The position numbers were made by a program, and so were the translations under genes. The notes beneath the pieces were generated by a model. It was not told the DNA's origin. It did no database searches and was given only the letters and a program-made list of their open reading frames with translations. From an uncultured bacterium (GTDB lineage: Bacteria; Oederibacteriota; PGYV01; CAWJRG01), in NCBI GenBank assembly GCA_963845185.1, contig CAWJRG010000005.1, positions 608,001 through 672,000 of the forward strand: DNA of 64,000 bases, in the 5' to 3' direction. Below are positions 1,675 to 64,000 of this stretch, one piece after another (the first letter of the stretch is position 1; each line of letters begins with the position of its first letter).

Positions 1675-2397
1675 TTAACTATTTTTCCCGGAATTAAATT
1701 TAACTAATTTATCCCACAAAATATTACCTTCATTGTCGCAATATTCAATCGCAAATTCCTTTGTGAATTTATTGATAACTTTTGAATATTCTTTTAAAAA
1801 AGCCGAATTCTTTTCTTTTGCTTTAAATCCAAGGGGTTCAATAATTTCAATATAAAAATTTTCGTCATTCGAAATAAATTCCCAAAACATCTGTCCGCAA
1901 TACTTTAAATAATCGCCTTTATTTGGATTATCATCTATGCCATAGCAGCAACCATTTACAGCAACAATGTTTGAACCTGCTATTCTCTTTGCTTGTTTAA
2001 AATTATCCTTCATTCGTTTAATCTGTTGGCTGTTTCCCCAATTGGGGCCTGATTTAATTGAAACAATATATTTAGTCCCCTTTTTCTCGAACTCCAAATC
2101 AATTCCTTCCGCTTTAGATTTATCGCCTTTAAAAACTTTACTACAAACAAAGATTGCCAGTTTTTCAAGTACACCGCCAAAAATTGCCTCTTCCTGTGAT
2201 GATAGATAAGCGTCAAGAATTGATTGAACTAAATCCTGAGCAGTAGCGATATTTTTCGCTTTAAAGAGATAAGGATTTTTCCGTTTTAATACGTCCTTGA
2301 GTTTTAATTTTAATAAATGCTCAAGTCGTTTTTTGTGAAACTCTTCTATTTGTGGTTCTGTGAATTTTATTATTTCTTCCAATAGCTTTTTTCCCAT
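1675..2397 (-). CDS. Type II restriction endonuclease, PD-(D/E)xK fold (EcoO109I/PmeII-like)
   Basis: KNPYLF, GIDLEF...SIKSGPNWGNS motifs. Follows and overlaps the MTase. Likely start is the ATG at 2397. Confidence 0.75.
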   Translation of the reverse strand: MGKKLLEEIIKFTEPQIEEFHKKRLEHLLKLKLKDVLKRKNPYLFKAKNIATAQDLVQSILDAYLSSQEEAIFGGVLEKLAIFVCSKVFKGDKSKAEGIDLEFEKKGTKYIVSIKSGPNWGNSQQIKRMKDNFKQAKRIAGSNIVAVNGCCYGIDDNPNKGDYLKYCGQMFWEFISNDENFYIEIIEPLGFKAKEKNSAFLKEYSKVINKFTKEFAIEYCDNEGNILWDKLVKFNSGKNS

Positions 2398-3238
2398 ATT
2401 TAACCCTCTTCTCAAGAAGCAAAAGTTCAACTTCTTTTATATGCTCTTTTGCAATTCTTACGTAATCTGATTTAATATCTATACCCACACAATTCCTACC
2501 TAATGCTTGTGCGACTTCACAGGCCGTCCCCGAGCCAACAAATGGATCCAGTACCCAATCATATTCTTTTGTAAATAGTTTAATAAACCATTCGGGCAGG
2601 GCTTTAGGAAATGTTGCGCTATGATTTTTATTTGAGGTTTCTGTTGCCAAATATAAAACATTTGATGGATAAGCTTTTTCCCTGCCTACCCAGTTTGCTA
2701 TATTTTTCCCAAATCCGCTTCCAACTTGGGAATTGAATCTTATTGTATCATTTTTACCCAAGTGTTTAAGTCTTGTTTTAGCCCAATCTCCAACCGGAAC
2801 CATTACATTTTCCTGATACATGTTAAAATTTTTGGTCTTATTAAATTGCAGGCATCTTTCCCACGCGTCACGGAATCTATTGGGCCATTTTCCTGGATGG
2901 CAGTTCTTTTTATGCCAGATAAATTCTTCAGTCCACAACCATCCTTGTTTTATCATTTCCAAAATAAGCTCAATTACATAAGTGTGTCTTTCGCCGTTGG
3001 CGACTTTTTCTTTTATATTTAAAATAAATGTTCCGGTAGGTTTTAAAACTCTCAAAAATTGTTCCGCCCTTGGTAAAAACCATTCAACGTATTTATCAGG
3101 ACTTATTCCACCATAGGTTTTTTCTCTGCTGTCGGCATAAGGCGGGGAAGTAATAATAAGGTCAAAGTAATTATCAGGGTATTGTTTGAGTACCTCTTTA
3201 CAATCCCCCATCTTGATTTCAGCTTTTAATTCTTTCAT
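2321..3238 (-). CDS. Beta-class amino DNA methyltransferase (probably N4-cytosine)
   Basis: Catalytic TSPPY near the N-terminus, HSATFP and the SAM-binding VLDPFVGSGT near the C-terminus. Confidence 0.9.
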   Translation of the reverse strand: MKELKAEIKMGDCKEVLKQYPDNYFDLIITSPPYADSREKTYGGISPDKYVEWFLPRAEQFLRVLKPTGTFILNIKEKVANGERHTYVIELILEMIKQGWLWTEEFIWHKKNCHPGKWPNRFRDAWERCLQFNKTKNFNMYQENVMVPVGDWAKTRLKHLGKNDTIRFNSQVGSGFGKNIANWVGREKAYPSNVLYLATETSNKNHSATFPKALPEWFIKLFTKEYDWVLDPFVGSGTACEVAQALGRNCVGIDIKSDYVRIAKEHIKEVELLLLEKRVKYGKKAIGRNNKIHRTTNRRVSQKTT

Positions 3239-33716: not shown

Positions 33717-33744
33717 GCAGAGACACGCCATGGCGTGTCTCTGC
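33717..33744. repeat. Perfect 28-bp palindrome, REP-like
   Basis: GCAGAGACACGCCATGGCGTGTCTCTGC immediately after the 33749 stop. Confidence 0.75.
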
Positions 33745-33748
33745 TTAT

Positions 33749-35752
33749 TTATTTTATTACATAGACTTTTAAAAGTTTTTTATCTGCCCCTGCCTCTATA
33801 TACACGAAATACAGCCCTTCTCCCGCAATCTTGCCGTCGCCATTTTTTACATCCCATTGCACCTGGTTCCATCCGTCGGCCGAAGCTGTAAATCCAAGGT
33901 CATTTCTTACTACTTCGCCGGTCAAATTATATACCTTTATTTTTACCTGCACATTTGCCTGGGTTTTCAGGTTTATCTGCAGCTTTTCGCCTTTGTCAGG
34001 GTTTACATAGTTTTTGGAAAGCGTCATGTTTAAGTTGGGCGTAGGAGTATTAGTAACAACCGGTGAAACCACACAAGTGGCCGTAACAACCGGCGTTGCA
34101 GTCGCGGTGTTTCCTGTTCCCTGATTGGTCAGGGTGCTTGTCGCTGTTAAGACAAAAGTTTCCATTGCAATAGCTGTATCCGTAGATGAAGGGACTTCTG
34201 TGCACGTTGAAGTCAGCGTGGGGCTTTCAGTAAGCGTAGGCGTCATTGTCGGCGTATTTGTCCCGGTGTCTATGTATGTAACTATCAATGTTGGAGTGTT
34301 TGTTTGTGTCATGGTAAAAGTATCTGTAATCACCAGCGTGAGCGACGGCGTTGCTGTAAATGAAGGCGTGGGCGTAAATGTAGGCGTGAATGTTGGTGTA
34401 TTTGTCCCGGTATATGTCCTGCTAATTACAAGTGTAGGTGACGGCGTTGCCGTAAATGTTGGCGAAGGCGTCTGCGTCCGTGTGATTGTTGGAGTCGGCG
34501 TTGCATTGGCGATGACAAATGTGAACGCGTATGTATTTGAAGTTCTTGTGTATGTCCCGTTTGTGTCGACTTCAGATGCTGAGGCATTGTCGGTAAATAC
34601 GACCGTACCCACGGAATTAGTTGTGAATACCCATGTAAAATTATAACTGCTGCCTGCCGTAAGTGTTGGAATATACGCAGGCGTTGGTCCTGAATTAATT
34701 GTCACAAGGCTTGAATTTGAGTCTCCCATTCCGCCCGGTACTACATTTGTAGCGTTGACCTGATAACCTGTATTGTTAACTATCAGATTCATAGTTATAA
34801 CCTGGCCCGGAAGCGCCGGGTTTGGATAACCGTCTATTCTTGCTGTTAAAGTCACGCCTTTGACATTCGTGATGCACGGATTGCTCCGCAAAGTAACGCC
34901 TGCAGATTGAATATCCTGTGAAGTAGCAAAAGCCGTATTTGTAATGCTGAACGCCATATTTATGGCTGTAGGGCTGACTAATGTAACTATTGATATGCTG
35001 CCATTTGCATTTGAATTGACTGACCCAATATACCAGTATGCAAATGTGCCTGACGATGTGGTGGATGTAGTAGCATATGGACCAGGGCTTGAGTTTAGGA
35101 ATGTAAGCTCATACGGTATTGTATCCCAGATGTAAACGCTGTTTGCCGGATTTCCCGATGCATTGCTGTAATTAATGGTATATGTAAATGTATCGCCTGC
35201 TTCCATAGGGTTTTCACTGGCTGTCTTTGACATTCCCAAAAGCACTACCGTCACTATTGGGCTGGCTGTAAGCGCCGTGTTTGTTGTGCCTGCAGGCGCT
35301 TCTGAAATACTAAAAGTATATGGGCCTGTGGCAACCGGCACTGTCACACCTTCTGTCCCTCCGCCTGCGCCGTAAACTATGTTCACTGTGTCATACCAGC
35401 TAATATCAAGACCATTGTCTGTGATAGTTATTGTGTTTCCGTTGATACTAATATCATTTGCCGGAACAGTCATTGAATTGCCGCTTGATACTGTATAAAC
35501 CATGACATTCCCAGATGAACCACTGCCATTTGTCGGGGCTGTCCACCCGCTTGGTATCTGGACTGTCAGGTAACCCATGCTTGTCCCGCTGTTTGTCCAA
35601 TTCACGCCGCCTGCATCGGCGTAACTTATTATAAATGTCGCGCCGCTAGAACCCGCGCCGGCGACAGAAGGTGAAATTGTTGCTGTGCCTGTGGCGAAAA
35701 TCGCTGATGTGAATAGTAAAACCGTCGTAAATGCCAGAAAAATTTTTTTCAT
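33749..35752 (-). CDS. Secreted DUF11-like domain protein with Thr-rich stalk and FlgD-Ig/T9SS-like CTD
   Basis: Signal peptide, SKTAS...GDTFTYTINYSN...IWDTIP, CTD KVYNLTGEVVR...WD...GLYFVYI...KVYVIK. ATG overlaps the upstream stop. Confidence 0.85.
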   Translation of the reverse strand: MKKIFLAFTTVLLFTSAIFATGTATISPSVAGAGSSGATFIISYADAGGVNWTNSGTSMGYLTVQIPSGWTAPTNGSGSSGNVMVYTVSSGNSMTVPANDISINGNTITITDNGLDISWYDTVNIVYGAGGGTEGVTVPVATGPYTFSISEAPAGTTNTALTASPIVTVVLLGMSKTASENPMEAGDTFTYTINYSNASGNPANSVYIWDTIPYELTFLNSSPGPYATTSTTSSGTFAYWYIGSVNSNANGSISIVTLVSPTAINMAFSITNTAFATSQDIQSAGVTLRSNPCITNVKGVTLTARIDGYPNPALPGQVITMNLIVNNTGYQVNATNVVPGGMGDSNSSLVTINSGPTPAYIPTLTAGSSYNFTWVFTTNSVGTVVFTDNASASEVDTNGTYTRTSNTYAFTFVIANATPTPTITRTQTPSPTFTATPSPTLVISRTYTGTNTPTFTPTFTPTPSFTATPSLTLVITDTFTMTQTNTPTLIVTYIDTGTNTPTMTPTLTESPTLTSTCTEVPSSTDTAIAMETFVLTATSTLTNQGTGNTATATPVVTATCVVSPVVTNTPTPNLNMTLSKNYVNPDKGEKLQINLKTQANVQVKIKVYNLTGEVVRNDLGFTASADGWNQVQWDVKNGDGKIAGEGLYFVYIEAGADKKLLKVYVIK

Positions 35753-36607
35753 ATTTCTTCATCTCCCTTTTTTAATGATGGTGCTATTATATTGTTTTTT
35801 ATGATTCCCATTATTTCCCTGCTGTAACCCGCCTCAATTATCTGTATCCTCTTCATTATCTTGCCTTTGACAACTTCGTATTTTTCTTTCCCAAGCCCGA
35901 TCTTGACGGCTTTTAACCGCAAAAAAAGCAGCCCGGTCATGCCTTCTTCGATTTCAGTCTTAATCCTGACTGTCGGCCCCAGCATTTTAATATTTCTTAC
36001 CAGCCGCTCCATGTCTATCATGCCGTCTTCCCTCAACTTGCCGTCCGAATCCCAGTTTGTGTTCTTGAAAACGAAATTCCCAAACGCGGTTTTTTCCAGG
36101 GTTTTTAAGAGCATTGCCTTTGCCGCCCTTTCGCCGCATGCTACGGTTAATTCGTCCTGTATTATTTTCCTCAGCTCGTCAAACGCGCCTGCAAGCTCGC
36201 TGATATTTTTTTCGTTTTTATAATCTATCTCCGCCGCGAAAGGTTCCTGTTCCAGTTCCTGTGTAGTTTTTGGCGGTGCAGATTCCTGCTCAAGTTGTTG
36301 TTTTATTTTTTCCGCCCTTTTGATAAGGTCGTCTATTTCATAATCATCCTCAGCGCTTTCCTTTTCTTTCCTGCGTTTTTTCTCCGCTAGCCGTGCCCAT
36401 TTCTTCCAGCTTGGACCTGACCACAATGCTTTTCTTTTCAGGTTTGGTTTCTGCGGGTTTGGCTTCAACATTTTTCTGTGTTGCCGGGTTTGCGCTTTCT
36501 TGTTTTGTTTTATCTTCGTTTTCTTTTTCGCCGGTTACCTGCTCTTCAATGCTGAACATGTCCGCCAGGTCCTGGCTTGTAATTGATAAATCCCGTTTTT
36601 TATCCAC
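35749..36607 (-). CDS. Hypothetical cytoplasmic protein (charged N-half, helical C-domain), one frameshift (~285 aa repaired)
   Basis: ORFs 36350..36607 and 35749..36471 join as RSKLEEMARLAEKKRR when the G3 at 36396-36398 is G2. Confidence 0.7.
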
Positions 36608-36613
36608 GCGTGC

Positions 36614-37003
36614 TCACCTTTTCCTCTGCATTTCTTTGTTTTTTTGTTTGATGAACTCGTCAAGGATGCATCCTTCTATATACCATGCGAGGTAAGGCAC
36701 GAATTTTTCGTTTTCATCCGAGCCCCAGCTTTTTACAGCCTTGATAAGGCCCCTGTTACCTGCCTTTATCAGCTTTACAAAAGATAGCCCTGCTCCCCTG
36801 TACCGGTTGGCTATGCCTATGACCATCCTCAGGTGGGCTTCTATAAGGAACTTTTGAATATCCTCTTTTTCCTCGGCCTGGGAGCCTTCCAGCTTGTTAA
36901 GGAGAATCTCAATTTTGTTAAAAGGCACTTCTTTAATGTGTGATATTACTATGAGATAATCCTTTAAATGGCTTTCGTCTATGTCTATCAATTTTAGCTT
37001 CAT
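36614..37003 (-). CDS. Sigma70-like protein with regions 1.2 and 2 only
   Basis: HLKDYL (1.2), LIEAHLRMVIGIANRY (2.1), GLSFVKLIKAGNRGLIKAV (2.2), KFVPYLAWYI (2.3). Ends at 129 aa. Confidence 0.8.
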   Translation of the reverse strand: MKLKLIDIDESHLKDYLIVISHIKEVPFNKIEILLNKLEGSQAEEKEDIQKFLIEAHLRMVIGIANRYRGAGLSFVKLIKAGNRGLIKAVKSWGSDENEKFVPYLAWYIEGCILDEFIKQKNKEMQRKR

Positions 37004-37188
37004 TGTCCTTTACCTCTCTTTTCCAAATTTTTTATGCTTTCTTCTTCCATCCATTTATTGACCCTGTCAAGGTCAACTAATTTTTCGTTAAAAAAATCCT
37101 GATGCTGTTTTAAAAATTTTCTTAAAGTTGGCAAAGAAATCTGCATGTAATCGGCTGCCTCGCCTTTCTTTACCGCATTTTTAGTCAT
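37000..37188 (-). CDS. Small excisionase/MerR-type HTH protein
   Basis: EAADYMQISLPTLRKF...VDLDRVNKWM, AGGTG RBS. Stop overlaps the next ATG. Confidence 0.7.
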   Translation of the reverse strand: MTKNAVKKGEAADYMQISLPTLRKFLKQHQDFFNEKLVDLDRVNKWMEEESIKNLEKRGKGQ

Positions 37189-37236: not shown

Positions 37237-37252
37237 AGCAATTCCTATGCCG
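37237..37252 (-). promoter_or_regulatory. Sigma54 (-24/-12) promoter
   Basis: CGGCATAGGAATTGCT against consensus TGGCAC-N5-TTGC(A/T), with exact GG-N10-GC spacing. Confidence 0.75.
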
Positions 37253-37317
37253 GGTTCAGTAGAAAAACAGTGAATATAATAAGGTAGTTTTTGTGATTGT
37301 TTCCCCTTGCGGAATAA

Positions 37318-37356
37318 TAGTGTAGAATTTTCTACACTAATGTAGGATTTACAACA
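37318..37356. promoter_or_regulatory. Tandem TGT-N10-ACA upstream activator sites for an enhancer-binding protein
   Basis: TGTAGAATTTTCTACA (37321-37336, within TAGTGTAGAA-TT-TTCTACACTA) and TGTAGGATTTACAACA (37341-37356), 20 bp apart. Confidence 0.7.
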
Positions 37357-53469: not shown

Positions 53470-55149
53470 TTAAAAACAATTTTGATTACAATTAGTATTT
53501 TGCATATTTTCACAATTTTTTATCATACTCTCAAATGTTGCTTCTGTTAATTGTTCTCCTGCAAGTGAACCACCAACAGATATTATTACACATGCAGGCA
53601 TTGCTGGCCCAGCCACCGCACAAATCACAGCCAGCGCAATCTCATTCTGAATAAATGTATCATTTTGTTGTTTCACAAAATCGTTAGCCGCTTGATAACA
53701 AGCCGAAACCTGCGAGCCACAATCGCAATAGCCAAAAATATCTTTAAGATTTATAGGGTTATTTAAAACATACTCATATAAATTTAATTCTTCGCGCTGT
53801 CCATAATCTTTCGCATAAGTAATGAGACCTTCTAACCCATTTTTACCGAGTGGGTCTCTTGAAGTCCATCTTCCTACATCCGCATCATACCAGCGGTGCC
53901 AGAAATAGATAAAGCCTGTGTCCCAGTCTTTCTGGCCGTAATACCTGCCCACAAACGTAATACTGTTTATCGGGTCGCCCGTGGCGTTTGTTATCTGTCC
54001 GTACGCGTCATACTGGTAGTATTGCACTGGCCTGCCTGTATCGTCCGTCAATGCCGTTACGCTTCCCATGTTGTCGAAAAGATAATACAGCCTCTGAAAG
54101 TGCGAAAAAGTCCCTGAGCTGGTATATATCTTTCTCGTCATGCCGAGCGCTCCCTCATCGTCGCTTGTATATATCTTCAAAATCTTTGTGCCGTCTCCTT
54201 CGGCAAACAGTTTTTTGCCGTTATAGTAATAATGTGTCACAGCCCCATTAACATTCTTTCCAACTCTCAAATTGTTGTGGTTATAATTATATGCAATTGT
54301 TTTTCCGCCGGTAACAGTACCTGACAGCCTGTTGTTATAATCCCATGTAAATGTATTCGCGCCTTTTTGAGTCATATTGCCGTTTGCGTCGTATGCCATT
54401 GGGCTTATGCCGCTCACGCTTGTATACTCGTTCAGGTCATTTGGCGTGTAATTAACCGTGGCATCCGCAACCACGCTGCTCCTGTTCCCTGCCGCATCGT
54501 AATTATAAGTAACCTGCTTGTTTGTTACGGCATTCACGTTGTTATAATTTGTAAGCTGGTATATATTGTCGTAGTTATATGTTATATTTCCCGTGCTCGT
54601 GCTTTTTGTTTTTATGTTCCCCACACTGTCAAACTGCTGGACTTCGCATTTTGTCAGTATATCGCTGCCGAGATAACCGTCCGCTTTCTGCGTCTTATAT
54701 CCTTGACCGTATGTGTATTCCATTTTGTTATTATTGGGATAATCTATCTCGAGCTTATGCCCGGCAGTATCGTAGCTGCTTATATTAAATACTTCGTTCG
54801 TGCCCGTTGACTCGTCCGTAACTTTATAAACCATATTTGCTTCGTTATAGTCGGTATGTGTCACTTCACTTCCATTTAATGTAACATCTGTCTGGTTATT
54901 ATTTGCGTCATATGAATTTGCTATTACAGTGCCGTCAGGGTACGTGGTTGTCGATAGCATGCTGTCGGTGTTATATGTGTAGTTTACTGTGCCATAGCCC
55001 GGTATGGTTTCCGATAGTATTTTTCCTCCGCATGAGCAGTTATTGTCGTAAGTCATTGTCCTTGTGCCGTCAGGCGCGTTTATGGCCAGCACGCGGTTGA
55101 AAAGGTCGTATGTATAAGTGGTATTCCTCGCCATGTTCCTGCTTGTCAT
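53470..55149 (-). CDS. Orphan Rhs/YD C-terminal module with alternative CT
   Basis: Close match to the last part of 56570..61096 up to GRWTSRDP...PINLKDIFGY, then an unrelated ~85-aa CT. Confidence 0.85.
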   Translation of the reverse strand: MTSRNMARNTTYTYDLFNRVLAINAPDGTRTMTYDNNCSCGGKILSETIPGYGTVNYTYNTDSMLSTTTYPDGTVIANSYDANNNQTDVTLNGSEVTHTDYNEANMVYKVTDESTGTNEVFNISSYDTAGHKLEIDYPNNNKMEYTYGQGYKTQKADGYLGSDILTKCEVQQFDSVGNIKTKSTSTGNITYNYDNIYQLTNYNNVNAVTNKQVTYNYDAAGNRSSVVADATVNYTPNDLNEYTSVSGISPMAYDANGNMTQKGANTFTWDYNNRLSGTVTGGKTIAYNYNHNNLRVGKNVNGAVTHYYYNGKKLFAEGDGTKILKIYTSDDEGALGMTRKIYTSSGTFSHFQRLYYLFDNMGSVTALTDDTGRPVQYYQYDAYGQITNATGDPINSITFVGRYYGQKDWDTGFIYFWHRWYDADVGRWTSRDPLGKNGLEGLITYAKDYGQREELNLYEYVLNNPINLKDIFGYCDCGSQVSACYQAANDFVKQQNDTFIQNEIALAVICAVAGPAMPACVIISVGGSLAGEQLTEATFESMIKNCENMQNTNCNQNCF

Positions 55150-56577: not shown

Positions 56578-59500
56578 CAGAATCACCTCCCGAACTTCCA
56601 GTTTGATTGCTATCTTGTAGTTCTGTATCACCAGGACCAGGAGCTGTACCCTTTTCCGGTTCATTATTAGAATTTATCATAGTATACGGGTTTGAAGATT
56701 CACTAATTGCAAGAGCAACTCCACCAAGAATACATATTGCTCCTACTATATAACCAGGAACTGTTTTGGTAAGACAAATACCAATACCACACCCAATCAC
56801 AGCAGCGGGGACAGTATAATCTGGAGGTCCATTTAAAGCTTGTGCAGTTGTTTCCGAATTAGGTGCAGTAGGAGAATCTTGATCATCTAATCCTTTAGTG
56901 TCTACAGCATAGCCCGGCCGATTATGTACATACCCATATAAATTCACCCCGCCCTTCACGCCCACCGGATCCCTGCTTATCCATCTCCCCAATTGCGCGT
57001 CATACCAACGATGCCAGAAATAGATAAAGCCTGTGTCCCAGTCTTTCTGGCCGTAATACCTGCCAACAAAGGTAATGCTGTTTATCGGGTCGCCTGTGGC
57101 GTTTGTTATCTGGCCGTACGCGTCATACTGGTAGTATTGCACTGGCCTGCCTGTATCGTCCGTCAACGCAGTGACGCTTCCCAGGTTGTCGAAAAGATAA
57201 TACAGCCTCTGAAAGTGCGAAAAAGTCCCTGAGCTGGTATATATCTTTCTCGTCATGCCGAGCGCTCCCTCATCGTCGCTTGTATATATCTTCAAAATCT
57301 TTGTGCCGTCTCCTTCGGCAAACAGTTTTTTGCCGTTATAGTAATAATGTGTCACAGCCCCATTAACATTCTTTCCAACTCTCAAATTGTTGTGGTTATA
57401 ATTATATGCAATTGTTTTGCTGCCTATGCTTGCCCCTGACAGCCTGTTATTATAGTCCCACGTTAACGTCTTGCTTCCTTTTTGCGTCATGTTGCCGTTT
57501 GCATCGTACCCCATCGTGCTTATTCCACTCACGCTCGTATACTCGTTCAAGTCATTTGGTGTGTAATTAATCGTGGCATCCGCGACCACGCTGCTCCTGT
57601 TCCCGGCAGTGTCGTAATTATAAGCAACCTGCTTGTTTGCCACCGCATTCGCATTGTCATAATTTGTCAATTGGTAAATATTATCGTAATTATATGTTAT
57701 ATCGCCTGTACTCATGCTTTTTGTCTTTATATTACCTACGCTGTCAAAATTTGTTACTTCGCATTTTGTCATTATATCGCTTCCGAGATAACCATCAGCT
57801 TTCTGCATCTTATATCCCTGTCCGTATGCGTATTCCATTTTATTGTTATTGGGATAATCTATTTCAAGCTTATGGCCTGCCGCGTCGTAATTGCTTATAT
57901 TAAATACTTCGTTCGTTCCTGTCGATTCGTCTGTAACCCTGTAAACCATATTCGCCTCGTTATAGTCAGTATGTGTCACTTCACTCCCATTTAAAATAAC
58001 ATCTGTCTGGTTATTATTTGCGTCATATGAATTTGCTATTACAGTGCCGTCAGGGTAAATGGTTGTAGATAGCATGCTGTCGGTATTATATGTGTAATTT
58101 ATAGTACCGTAGCCCGGTATTGTCTCGGATAATATTTTGCCCCCGCAAGAGCAGTTATTGTCGTAAGTCATTGTCCTTGTGCCATCAGGCGCGTTTATAT
58201 TCAGCACGCGGTTGAAAAGATCGTAAGCAAAAGTCGTGTTTCTCGTAAGGTTCTGGTCGCTCCTGCTTATCATGTTGCCGGACGGGTCGAACCACATCTC
58301 CGTCACATTTTGCGAGTCATCTTGCACCCAGTTCATCCGGTTTAACCCGTCAAAGGCATAAGTGGTTATTTTGAGCTTCTGGTCAATCATCTGCGTCCTG
58401 TTATTGCTTTTATCGTAGGTAAATTTTACGGATGTCTGGTTCGCGTAATCTATTTCGAGGAGCATGCCGCTTTCGGACTTTATGTATGTTGTTGATTCTC
58501 CACCGTTGTCGGTTACCAGCTGCGTCTCGACTCCATTTGAAAACGAGTTGACATATGTTGTATTTATACCGTCTAAGTTTATTCCGTTTACATAACCGAG
58601 GTTGTCGTAGTTGTAGGTAGTCGTCTTGTTCCCATCGCTCACCGTATATAAAAGGCCTGCGTTCAATCCGCCTGCCGGGTAATAAGTATAGCTTTTTCCT
58701 ATTTGTATTGAATTCGGTTTTGTTACGTTAATAGCCTCGCTTTGCAGCTTGTCGTCCGGATAATAATTATAATATTTTATATAGCCTTTTTTATCCGTGG
58801 CCTGCGTTATTTTTTGCCGTGTATTGTATGTATAGAGAGCGTATTTGCTTTCGCCCTGCAAATATGTTTTCATGGTTCCGCCGCCGCCCGCGTAGTCCGT
58901 GTATTCCCTTATCTCGGTCCCGCCCATTGTGTCTTTCCTGATAACCCTTCCAAACATATCATAAACCGTCCTGAAACTTTTGGTGACGCCAATGCCCGAA
59001 ACCGTCAAAGTGTCGGTAATAATGGACGGGGTTGAATAATTCCATACATGTGTTTTTGTCACGGCATCATTGCTATTGTTTATCCATGTTGTTTCCGTAT
59101 AATTCTGGGGGTTTTCCGGGTCGGGGTAACTCATGGTTGCCACGGTTACCAGTGCACCGTCATAGCCTTTTTGAATAGCAGTTATATTCTCATAACTATC
59201 TCTGGTATATTCTACAACCCTGCCTTCGGGATCCTTTGATTTCGTAATAAAACCGGCGGAATCATAGGTGTAATACGTCGTCCCTGCCGCGGCGCCACCG
59301 GTTGATGACGTGGTGTAATTCCGTGTTACCTGCGAAACCTCGGCATTGCTGTTGTAATGCCCCGACACGTTGTTGCCTGTTTGATCGGTTATGGATTCCT
59401 GCTGGAAATTCAGCGGGTTTGTCTGGGCTGTTTTTATCGTTATGCCGTTCAGCGTTATTTTCTCGCCGTTTCCCGTGCCGCCCATGTATATGTTTTTTAT

Positions 59501-63582: not shown

Positions 63583-64000
63583 TTATTTTATCTTTACTCT
63601 TAATTTTTTCTCTATCACTGTCCTTGTTTTTTCGAGTTCTTTTATTCCGGCAGTCATTTCATCCATTTCGTTCTGCTTTATTTTTATGCCTGCCGCCTTC
63701 ACAGCCTTTCCTATATTTTTCTCGTCCTGCAGAATATAAATTCTTTCTTCAATCTGTATCAGCTTTTTATTCAGATATGCTTTTATATCCTCTGCCGCTT
63801 GCTTGTCCTGATAATGCGCCGTGTCAGGCACTGATATATCTATCCAGAGTATGTCGCCGTAATTCCTGATATTTGCCATCCATTTTTCCCTTGCCGCGTA
63901 AATATTTTTCAACTCCTCGCACTTTGACTTTATGCACTCGAGTATTTTTTTGTCGTATTCTTCTATTATTAGGCTTGAATACGTGAAATACACTTCTTTC
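63583..64000 (-). CDS. 3' part of a hypothetical coiled-coil protein
   Basis: Frame is open to the window edge and ends just before the alpha-galactosidase RBS. Confidence 0.55.
   Translation of the reverse strand, partial: KEVYFTYSSLIIEEYDKKILECIKSKCEELKNIYAAREKWMANIRNYGDILWIDISVPDTAHYQDKQAAEDIKAYLNKKLIQIEERIYILQDEKNIGKAVKAAGIKIKQNEMDEMTAGIKELEKTRTVIEKKLRVKIK

Follow-up and report, generated by a model that had tools for sequence, protein, structure and literature searches.

Sigma factors are taught as having at least two domains, sigma-2 plus sigma-4, and the exceptions known to us are phage factors, such as T4 gp55, and a few split sigmas. Here we analyze a 64,000-nucleotide (nt) stretch of DNA from an uncultured bacterium of the GTDB lineage Oederibacteriota (GenBank assembly GCA_963845185.1, contig CAWJRG010000005.1, positions 608,001 to 672,000 of the forward strand; hereafter the window), in which a gene encodes a 129-amino acid (aa) protein corresponding to domain 2 of a sigma-70 type factor (hereafter the sigma-2 protein). 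We are highly confident of the descriptive picture taken as a whole, namely a conserved, free-standing sigma domain 2, a sigma-54 promoter module, and an operon shared with a DUF11 gene at most loci. With regard to function, the reading that we rank first, at a rough probability of 0.35, argues by analogy with phage T4 that the protein may be a minimal, gp55-like, second-tier RNA polymerase factor in a sigma-54 cascade.

The described systems that invite comparison each share some features with this locus. T4 gp55 is reported to consist of sigma region 2 only, to bind to the clamp helices of the polymerase and to read a -10-like element (PMC7892883). In the T4 late system, gp55 works with the co-activator gp33 and the sliding clamp gp45. 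The likeness to the window protein, as far as the available portions of two sources convey it, lies in a protein that is essentially sigma region 2 alone, with no region 4, and in small accessory proteins that are encoded separately (PMC7892883, PMC2988020). Yet gp55 is a phage protein that has diverged greatly from sigma70, whereas the window protein is cellular and clearly RpoD/RpoS-like. PMC7892883 also assigns to gp55 three acidic clamp-helix residues and, as additional elements, a helix-loop-helix and a clamp-binding motif at the C-terminus; in the window protein the matching sigma70 positions hold K, K and A, and the chain stops directly behind region 2.4. In Bacillus subtilis SigO-RsoA and Tn916 Sig7-Sig8, sigma functions are likewise distributed over small adjacent genes, with one piece of region 2 type, but in the available text of the source the other piece is a recognizable region 4 protein and both pieces are required (10.64898/2026.10.01.756105); here, the neighbor is not sigma-4-like and is evolutionarily dispensable.

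The Borrelia Rrp2-RpoN-RpoS cascade provides a regulatory parallel. There, as the accessible parts of the reports describe it, an NtrC-type activator and sigma-54 directly transcribe the gene of a group-2-like sigma, and the output is surface proteins (PMC3037356, PMC4014564). The module described below likewise joins an activator of NtrC type to a sigma-54 promoter, and its genes include one for a surface protein beside the RpoD/RpoS-like sigma-2 gene, but RpoS is a complete sigma, whereas here domain 2 stands alone and the surface-protein gene lies within the same sigma-54 operon. PhyR, in the part of its literature available to us, offers a degenerate sigma-like domain that has lost the canonical contacts and could bind a partner instead of polymerase; it differs in having ECF-like (extracytoplasmic function) regions 2 and 4, a receiver fusion and NepR as its anti-sigma partner, whereas the window protein has nothing but a region 2 of group 1/2 type, stands by itself in the genome, and has no anti-sigma partner that could be seen. 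Laboratory fragments of sigma70 spanning regions 1.2-2.4, also called sigma-2, have the same domain boundaries, and crystal structures of Thermus sigmaA domain 2 (3ugo, 4ki2 and 1ku2) are among the best matches to the window protein. Those fragments are engineered truncations with their contact residues intact, whereas the window gene is natural and its contact residues are changed. The sigma-2 family thus differs from each compared system in a defining feature.

The gene itself is located as follows, its identification resting on Pfam, an AlphaFold2 model, its family and the ratio of nonsynonymous to synonymous substitution rates (dN/dS):

36614..37003, minus strand: 129-aa sigma-70 region 1.2-2.4 (sigma domain 2) protein

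Pfam recognizes Sigma70_r2 (PF04542) at residues 53-121, with 38.5 bits against a cut-off of 24, and gives no match at an expect value (E) <=1 for Sigma70 r1_2, r3 or r4. A previous sequence-only reading, made by a model from the letters of the DNA, had assigned the protein to regions 1.2-2.4 without regions 3 and 4 and had proposed Sigma70_r1_2 and Sigma70_r2 as the profiles by which to check it; the second matches here and in 20/20 members of the family described below, and the first matches neither the window protein nor any family member (0/20). The motifs on which that reading drew, KLIKAG and VPYLAWYIEGCI, are both present in the translation. A scan of NCBIfam returned 40 sigma models, all of them partial matches (RpoD, RpoH) far under the full-length cut-offs; positions 12-117 of the 285 in the RpoH model, for instance, align with residues 9-118 of the protein at 56 bits against a cut-off of 241.

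The assignment to regions 1.2-2.4 is further borne out by structure prediction. The AlphaFold2 model built from the 20-sequence family alignment consists of six helices with a predicted local distance difference test score (pLDDT) of 87.4. VIA-align places its residues 10-128 on residues 95-456 of Escherichia coli sigma70, skipping the non-conserved insert (Z 16.6, root-mean-square deviation 2.7 A, 119 residues), and superimposes it on residues 56-166 of sigmaS (Z 15.1, 2.1 A, 111 residues). Foldseek reports 91 matches to the model at E<=0.001, with sigmaA and sigmaS domain 2 structures around it and 38% identity to Thermus sigmaA across region 2, and the family profile matches sigmaA domain 2 in PDB at E 7e-21. 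The C-terminus of the protein falls at the 2.4/3.0 boundary, with about 12 residues after region 2.4 that form a Lys/Arg-rich tail, and Pfam finds a single domain and no receiver domain in it. As modeled, therefore, the protein is sigma domain 2, regions 1.2 to 2.4 and nothing further. The other 13 Sigma70_r2 genes of this 3.5-Mb genome all have a region 4 match in the same frame; the sigma-2 gene is single-copy and scores lowest among the 14 Sigma70_r2 matches.

Relatives of the protein form a family of their own. A word-indexed search returned five relatives of 127-134 aa with 56-91% identity, and an exhaustive search of 1.84 billion cluster representatives (E<=0.001) returned 19,055 proteins, nearly all of them ordinary sigmas aligned only across residues ~40-115; among the best 150 of these matches, about 18 short proteins (77-134 aa) align from residue 1. 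The family alignment contains the 20 sequences that align without large gaps, and in it L13, K14, E55, A65, R69, L78, N83 and E110 are invariant. Using as survey criterion a full-length match in an open frame of 107-149 aa at E<=1e-15, we found the gene in 16/23 further genomes of this order and in 0/75 genomes from other orders of the phylum. The relatives are filed as Candidatus Goldbacteria/Goldiibacteriota or candidate division FCPU426, with two assemblies filed as uncultured Spirochaetia, and automatic annotation calls the family members 'hypothetical protein' or 'sigma70/sigma32 subunit'. Against three close relatives on metagenome contigs, dN/dS is 0.075 (dS 0.65), 0.122 (dS 0.43) and 0.075 (dS 0.17); the resulting range of 0.075-0.12 comes from unsaturated pairs only, the pairs with a 78%-identical relative being saturated (dS above 2). 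These results show that the sigma-2 gene is real, conserved and specific to one order of the Goldbacteria/FCPU426 lineage. Searches of the open-access literature and preprints found no description of such a region-2-only sigma family, and the open-access Goldbacteria papers do not describe it either; the main one (PMC7031533) does not mention sigma factors in a relevant way.

The same data bear on the explanation that the gene is a decaying, functionless remnant of a full-length sigma gene. In its favor one may count the lowest Sigma70_r2 score in the genome and the frameshift that the assembly carries in the downstream gene. The sequence-only reading had already judged that the gene did not look like a decaying fragment, and its view is upheld: homologues are not full-length sigmas but proteins of a constant 120-134 aa throughout the order, so the gene is no truncation; purifying selection is evident from the dN/dS values; the promoter is conserved; and the DNA downstream holds no trace of region 3 or 4, the next frame belonging to another family. 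For practical purposes, we consider a remnant excluded.

Unusual arrangements of the module were also seen in the public sequences. In P0015, a 386-aa protein from a 2.5-kb contig, the region 1.2-2 module occurs three times in tandem, each copy degenerate; the last one holds LIKAGNRGLVKAV, nearly as it stands in the window protein. P0028 contains two copies. Six RpoD-like proteins of the public library (P0010, P0017, P0018, P0019, P0021 and P0023) have exactly duplicated region 2 blocks, and these most likely reflect chimeric or mis-assembled metagenome contigs rather than true tandem sigmas.

The regulatory elements that precede the gene, together with the nearest trace of the associated two-component system inside the window, are the following:

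37237..37251, minus strand: sigma-54 type -24/-12 element GGCATAGGAATTGCT, 49 nt upstream of the start codon of the helix-turn-helix (HTH) gene
37320-37337, minus strand: candidate activator palindrome GTGTAGAAAATTCTACAC (TGT-N10-ACA), seen in the sequence
37299-37314, minus strand: candidate activator site TTCCGCAAGGGGAAAC (TTCC-N6-GGAA), seen in the sequence
63583..64000, minus strand: 3' part of a 242-aa signal-peptide coiled-coil gene that runs off the window, identified by synteny with relatives

The sigma-54 pattern searched on the coding strand was GG[CT]A[CT]-N5-[AT]TGC[ATC], which has the GG-N10-GC spacing. Taking as the first gene of the cassette the HTH gene, or the sigma-2 gene where the HTH gene is missing, the element lies 35-69 nt upstream of it in 15/17 loci. 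At one of the two remaining loci (L006) the region is cut by the contig end, and at the other (L024) the element is 200 nt upstream due to a ~150-nt leader insertion between it and the HTH start (L024:550-750), the sigma-2 protein there being 89% identical to that of the window. Over both strands of the 17 loci the pattern has 17 matches, against a mean of 2.1 and a maximum of 10 in 200 shuffles, and the genome encodes rpoN (Sigma54_DBD, 177.5 bits). Elsewhere in the window, an identical 35-nt stretch including GGCACTGTAATAGCA occurs in both RHS-repeat genes (54919-54933 and 58034-58048, minus strand) as a chance match to a loose sigma-54 pattern, and its identity indicates that part of these genes has been duplicated.

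The candidate activator sites (37299..37337) are situated about 50-100 nt upstream of the -24 element, and TGT..ACA palindromes and TTTC-N7/8-GAAA elements can be seen by eye at the same relative place in other loci. Immediately before the cassette, the relatives L018 and L025 encode a histidine kinase sensor, an activator of NtrC type and a signal-peptide coiled-coil protein of ~245 aa. In this genome the corresponding activator, a 439-aa protein with Response_reg, Sigma54_activat (235.6 bits) and HTH_8 domains, precedes the 242-aa gene past the window end, about 26 kb upstream of the cassette and on the same strand. From these arrangements we predict that the cassette is read from a sigma-54 (-24/-12) promoter and is linked to an NtrC-type two-component system.

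The operon closes with a surface-protein gene, which is followed by a hairpin:

33749..35752, minus strand: gene for a secreted surface protein of 667 aa and DUF11 type, which ends the operon (Pfam DUF11)
33717..33744, no strand: 12-bp GC-rich palindromic hairpin just past the DUF11 gene

The start of the DUF11 gene overlaps the stop of the preceding gene, and its product has a Thr/Pro-rich linker and a C-terminal sorting-type domain. In other genomes its orthologue, with 33% identity along the entire length (E 2e-62), comes directly behind the cassette; a DUF11 homologue is directly downstream of the cassette in 12/18 loci, and in genus g10 it comes directly after the sigma-2 gene. The hairpin is the probable end of the operon; it has a T-run on the plus strand only, and its terminator function on the minus strand is presumptive. 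Judged from gene order and promoter pattern, the core module across most of the order consists of the two-component system, the sigma-54 promoter, the sigma-2 protein and the surface protein, to which the small HTH protein and a downstream protein of about 250-290 aa are frequent but dispensable additions.

Under the second-tier reading that we prefer, the NtrC-type activator and sigma-54 would switch on the sigma-2 protein together with the surface protein; the sigma-2 fold would dock at the usual site of sigma domain 2, the beta-prime clamp helices; and the docked protein would read and open a -10-like element only, as T4 gp55 does, with the HTH and the downstream protein serving as optional co-factors or feedback regulators. 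We evaluated this mechanism by aligning the 20-member family to the genome's own RpoD and to region 2 of all 13 other sigmas that it encodes. The sigma70 residue numbers and roles used here are those we take to be established for that protein, and their mapping onto the family rests on the identical RpoD motif. Several features expected of a working domain 2 are retained: the hydrophobic core formed by regions 2.1-2.2; in region 1.2, the motif L-K-x-Y (L-K-x-Y-L), with L13 and K14 in 20/20 members and Y16 in 19/20; and the region 2.2 packing motif G-N-x-G-L, with N83 in 20/20. F101 (18/20), Y or F at position 104 (17/20) and W107 (19/20) are also kept, and these we assume to be the equivalents of sigma70 F427, Y430 and W433. 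The ECF sigmas of this genome lack a W433-type tryptophan, so this residue is not required for the fold. The equivalents of Y425 and W434 are variable across the family.

A number of observations weigh against this second-tier mechanism. The acidic/polar contact motif of region 2.2, D-L-x-Q-E, whose residues we presume to be the sigma70 contacts to the beta-prime clamp helices, reads K-L-I-K-A in the window protein. The equivalent of D403 is K there and D in only 1/20 family members, against D in 13/13 of the other sigmas of the genome; that of Q406 is K or R in 14/20 members and that of E407 is A in 10/20. In region 2.4, the R436 equivalent is E in 20/20 members, the Q437 equivalent is G in 15/20, the T440 equivalent is I or L and the R441 equivalent is D in 12/20, the last three being, as we assume, the positions that read -12/-13 in sigma70. 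The loop preceding the F427 equivalent is acidic and not basic, and the region 2.2 helix has a net charge of +5 in the window protein against -5 to +1 in the 13 other sigmas. The target promoter was sought upstream of neighboring genes, by eye and with no motif search program, and only sigma-70-like hexamers were seen. The gene is, moreover, absent from the survey results of 7/23 other genomes of the order (61-99% complete), four of which have a congener that carries one, and it is therefore accessory. Finally, in the accessible part of the gp55 work, the three acidic residues on the clamp-binding helix of that factor are needed for polymerase binding (PMC7892883). The G/L/D pattern of region 2.4 in the family is similar to that of the genome's FliA-like sigma (RIRGSVLDVL), so loss of function is not necessarily implied by it. 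All 20 members are basic (isoelectric point 8.6-10.1) with a Lys/Arg-rich C-terminal tail, which is compatible with DNA contact. Taken together, the evidence for mechanism points both ways: the packing motif, the DNA-wedge tryptophan and the fold itself favor work on polymerase and DNA, and the lost acidic contacts oppose canonical docking.

The loss or charge reversal of the D403 and Q406 equivalents, the +5 charge of helix 2.2 and the basic character of the whole family, unlike the acidic region 2.2 helices of the 13 other sigmas, would be expected if the sigma-2 fold had been re-used as a basic binding module outside polymerase. The protein would then be a sigma mimic or nucleic-acid binder, and its target could be an acidic partner, such as the linker or N-terminal motif of the downstream protein, an anti-sigma as in PhyR, or single-stranded DNA or RNA. 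A multi-copy protein of the P0015 type cannot act as an ordinary sigma, its three tandem modules being unusable by one, and the portion of the PhyR literature available to us supplies a precedent in which a degenerate sigma-like domain serves as an anti-anti-sigma. Helix 2.2, on the other hand, has a charge of 0 or less in 5/20 members (+1 or more in 15/20); G-N-x-G-L and W107 are conserved although a pure scaffold would not need them; and no conserved anti-sigma-like gene lies nearby, with Pfam and NCBIfam reporting no anti-sigma-like family in the cassette proteins. We rank this explanation second and regard it as possible at best, with odds well short of even.

The sequence-only reading had also proposed a sigma mimic that soaks up polymerase core or an anti-sigma. 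A sigma-2 fold that lacks regions 3 and 4 and has altered -12-reading positions could indeed act as a core-polymerase decoy, filling the sigma-2 site without directing initiation and thereby damping sigma-70-family transcription while the sigma-54 operon is on. Engineered sigma70 fragments that contain region 2 are known to bind core. The competing giant surface-protein genes of the neighborhood are an example of what could be damped: by eye, these genes have strong sigma-70-like promoters, such as TTGACT-N17-TATAAT, and the sigma-2 protein would, by our prediction, be produced only upon firing of the NtrC-type system. The loss of the acidic clamp-helix contacts nonetheless predicts weak competition, neither the conserved W107 nor a conserved region 1.2 is needed by a decoy, and a decoy might affect sigma-54 as well. 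We place this explanation third and find it doubtful.

The gene immediately upstream of the sigma-2 gene, whose stop overlaps the sigma-2 start (ATGA), raises the separate question of a sigma assembled from two pieces:

37000..37188, minus strand: 62-aa helix-turn-helix protein, a frequent but dispensable companion (weak HTH matches, locus survey)

That a separate HTH is encoded here, as the sequence-only reading had it, finds agreement in weak matches only, to HTH_17 (E 0.028) and to the excisionase-type model TIGR01764 (E 0.0023); in the HTH family, HTH_17 is matched by 4/11 members, with a best E of 6e-4. Its further suggestion, that this protein supplies DNA recognition in trans, would make of the two genes an obligate two-piece sigma, in which the HTH reads a -35-like element in the manner of SigO-RsoA or Tn916 Sig7-Sig8. 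The genes are indeed adjacent, with overlapping stop and start, the HTH is conserved (dN/dS 0.15), single-copy and adjoins the sigma-2 gene wherever it is present, and split sigmas do exist, as the available part of 10.64898/2026.10.01.756105 documents. The protein does not, however, resemble sigma-4. Sigma70_r4 is matched by 0/11 HTH proteins at E<=1, and hhalign against a profile of the genome's 13 sigma-4 regions aligns only a 20-column helix-turn-helix, with 50% probability.

Nor is the HTH always there. In a neighbor comparison of the window locus and 14 loci from related genomes (n=15), the HTH gene is directly upstream of the sigma-2 gene in 11/15 loci and missing from 4/15. A genome-wide search did not find it in 5/5 genomes that keep the sigma-2 gene and have loci lacking the HTH or, in G021, unassessed; the genomes where it was not found include three of genus g10, G014 and G006. 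The control search did find it in 5/5 known carriers, but their sequences are in the profile, so this shows only that a 59-residue target is findable. In G014 the loss is recent, given that its congener G023 has the HTH. The trans-acting half therefore fails as an obligate partner, and we consider a two-piece sigma of this kind very unlikely.

A distant sigma-4 partner was also considered and rejected. The candidate was an orphan protein of 140 aa (L021:4212-4634, minus strand, the same as G000:C8:36214-36633), in which a topoisomerase-type zinc ribbon is fused to sigma region 4 (Sigma70_r4, 52.6 bits), and no full-length relative of it was found in 40 related genomes. The contig that carries its gene is 46 kb long and has Fic-like and CHAT-like genes around it; the matches to it in the 40 related genomes are all partial, and 39/40 of them fall in sigma-sized frames.

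On the other side of the sigma-2 gene, a frame begins 7 nt past its stop:

35749..36607, minus strand: downstream gene, representing a novel family and frameshifted in the assembly into frames of 85 aa (36607..36350) and 240 aa (36471..35749)

The 285-aa partner proposed in the sequence-only reading is thus not a single open frame here. DNA alignment to an 84%-identical, intact relative of 290 aa (P0162) places a single surplus base, inside an A/G-rich run, between 36360 and 36370, and the 85-aa and 240-aa frames correspond to the N-terminal motif and the remainder of the protein, respectively. P0165 (305 aa, 61% identical) is likewise intact, and orthologues elsewhere measure 215-305 aa; the frameshift is either a recent break or an assembly error. 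At its N-terminus the protein has a short conserved motif (S..D[LI].E[IM]F[GS]), followed by an acidic linker that is variable and disordered. Its conserved C-terminal domain, of ~150 residues, is modeled as a helical bundle plus a small hairpin with pLDDT >90 and has a dN/dS of 0.13 (against L023).

The earlier statement that this next gene is not sigma3/4-like agrees with every comparison made. No Pfam family is common to more than 1/11 members, PDB sequences give 0 matches at E<=10, Foldseek finds no match to the model at E<=0.001, the best wide Z in VIA-align (7.1) is within the range for unrelated helical bundles, and Atlas returns only unnamed clusters at 0.90 or below. Longer paralogues of the C-terminal domain (331, 475 and 367 aa), with Glu/Lys-rich coiled-coil N-terminal parts, occur at L052:1833-4170 and L053:410-1513 in two related genomes, just upstream of a conserved 400-aa gene that by eye has an HD-domain dGTPase-like look, so the domain family is not confined to the cassette.

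The downstream gene (215-305 aa) is present in 12/15 loci and missing from 3/15. In the three genomes of genus g10, which are 97-98% complete, neither the HTH nor the downstream gene was found anywhere in the genome. The sigma-2 gene persists in this genus (downstream protein in 0/3 genomes), which counts against the explanation of the sigma-2 protein as a basic binder acting outside polymerase.

The wider surroundings of the cassette are dominated by surface proteins. The ~24 kb between the GH36 gene and the cassette (37407-61099) are taken up by genes for giant surface proteins of Kelch, RHS and sorting-domain type. Among their products are a Kelch/BNR protein of 2020 aa, a Kelch protein of 1295 aa, two proteins with RHS repeats, and a DUF5122 protein of 1740 aa that has a sorting tail. 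The GH36 gene adjoins the cassette in L025, the 78%-identical relative, so the 24-kb block looks like an insertion or expansion. A known defense system was sought with PADLOC and rejected, the only hit being a partial MzaA match to a sigma. At 1675-3238, the window also contains a restriction-modification pair, in which an EcoO109I-type endonuclease gene (277 bits) overlaps a gene for an N6/N4 DNA methylase.

Returning to the preferred reading of a gp55-like second-tier factor, its most specific form would make the sigma-2 protein the first cellular counterpart of gp55: a domain-2-only sigma, acting as the second tier of an NtrC/sigma-54 system on the -10-only promoters of Goldbacteria surface proteins, with its clamp contact re-wired to basic residues and with the HTH and the helical protein as optional co-activators. 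In this full form we think it unlikely. What the analysis establishes for the lineage is that these bacteria keep a natural, domain-2-only protein of the sigma family, which is under strong purifying selection and predicted sigma-54/two-component control and in which the polymerase-contact residues have changed. As a minimal sigma, it would mark the lower size limit of promoter-specificity modules in cells; as a decoy, it would represent a new way to shift the polymerase pool; and if it binds something else, it would constitute a new use of the sigma-2 fold.

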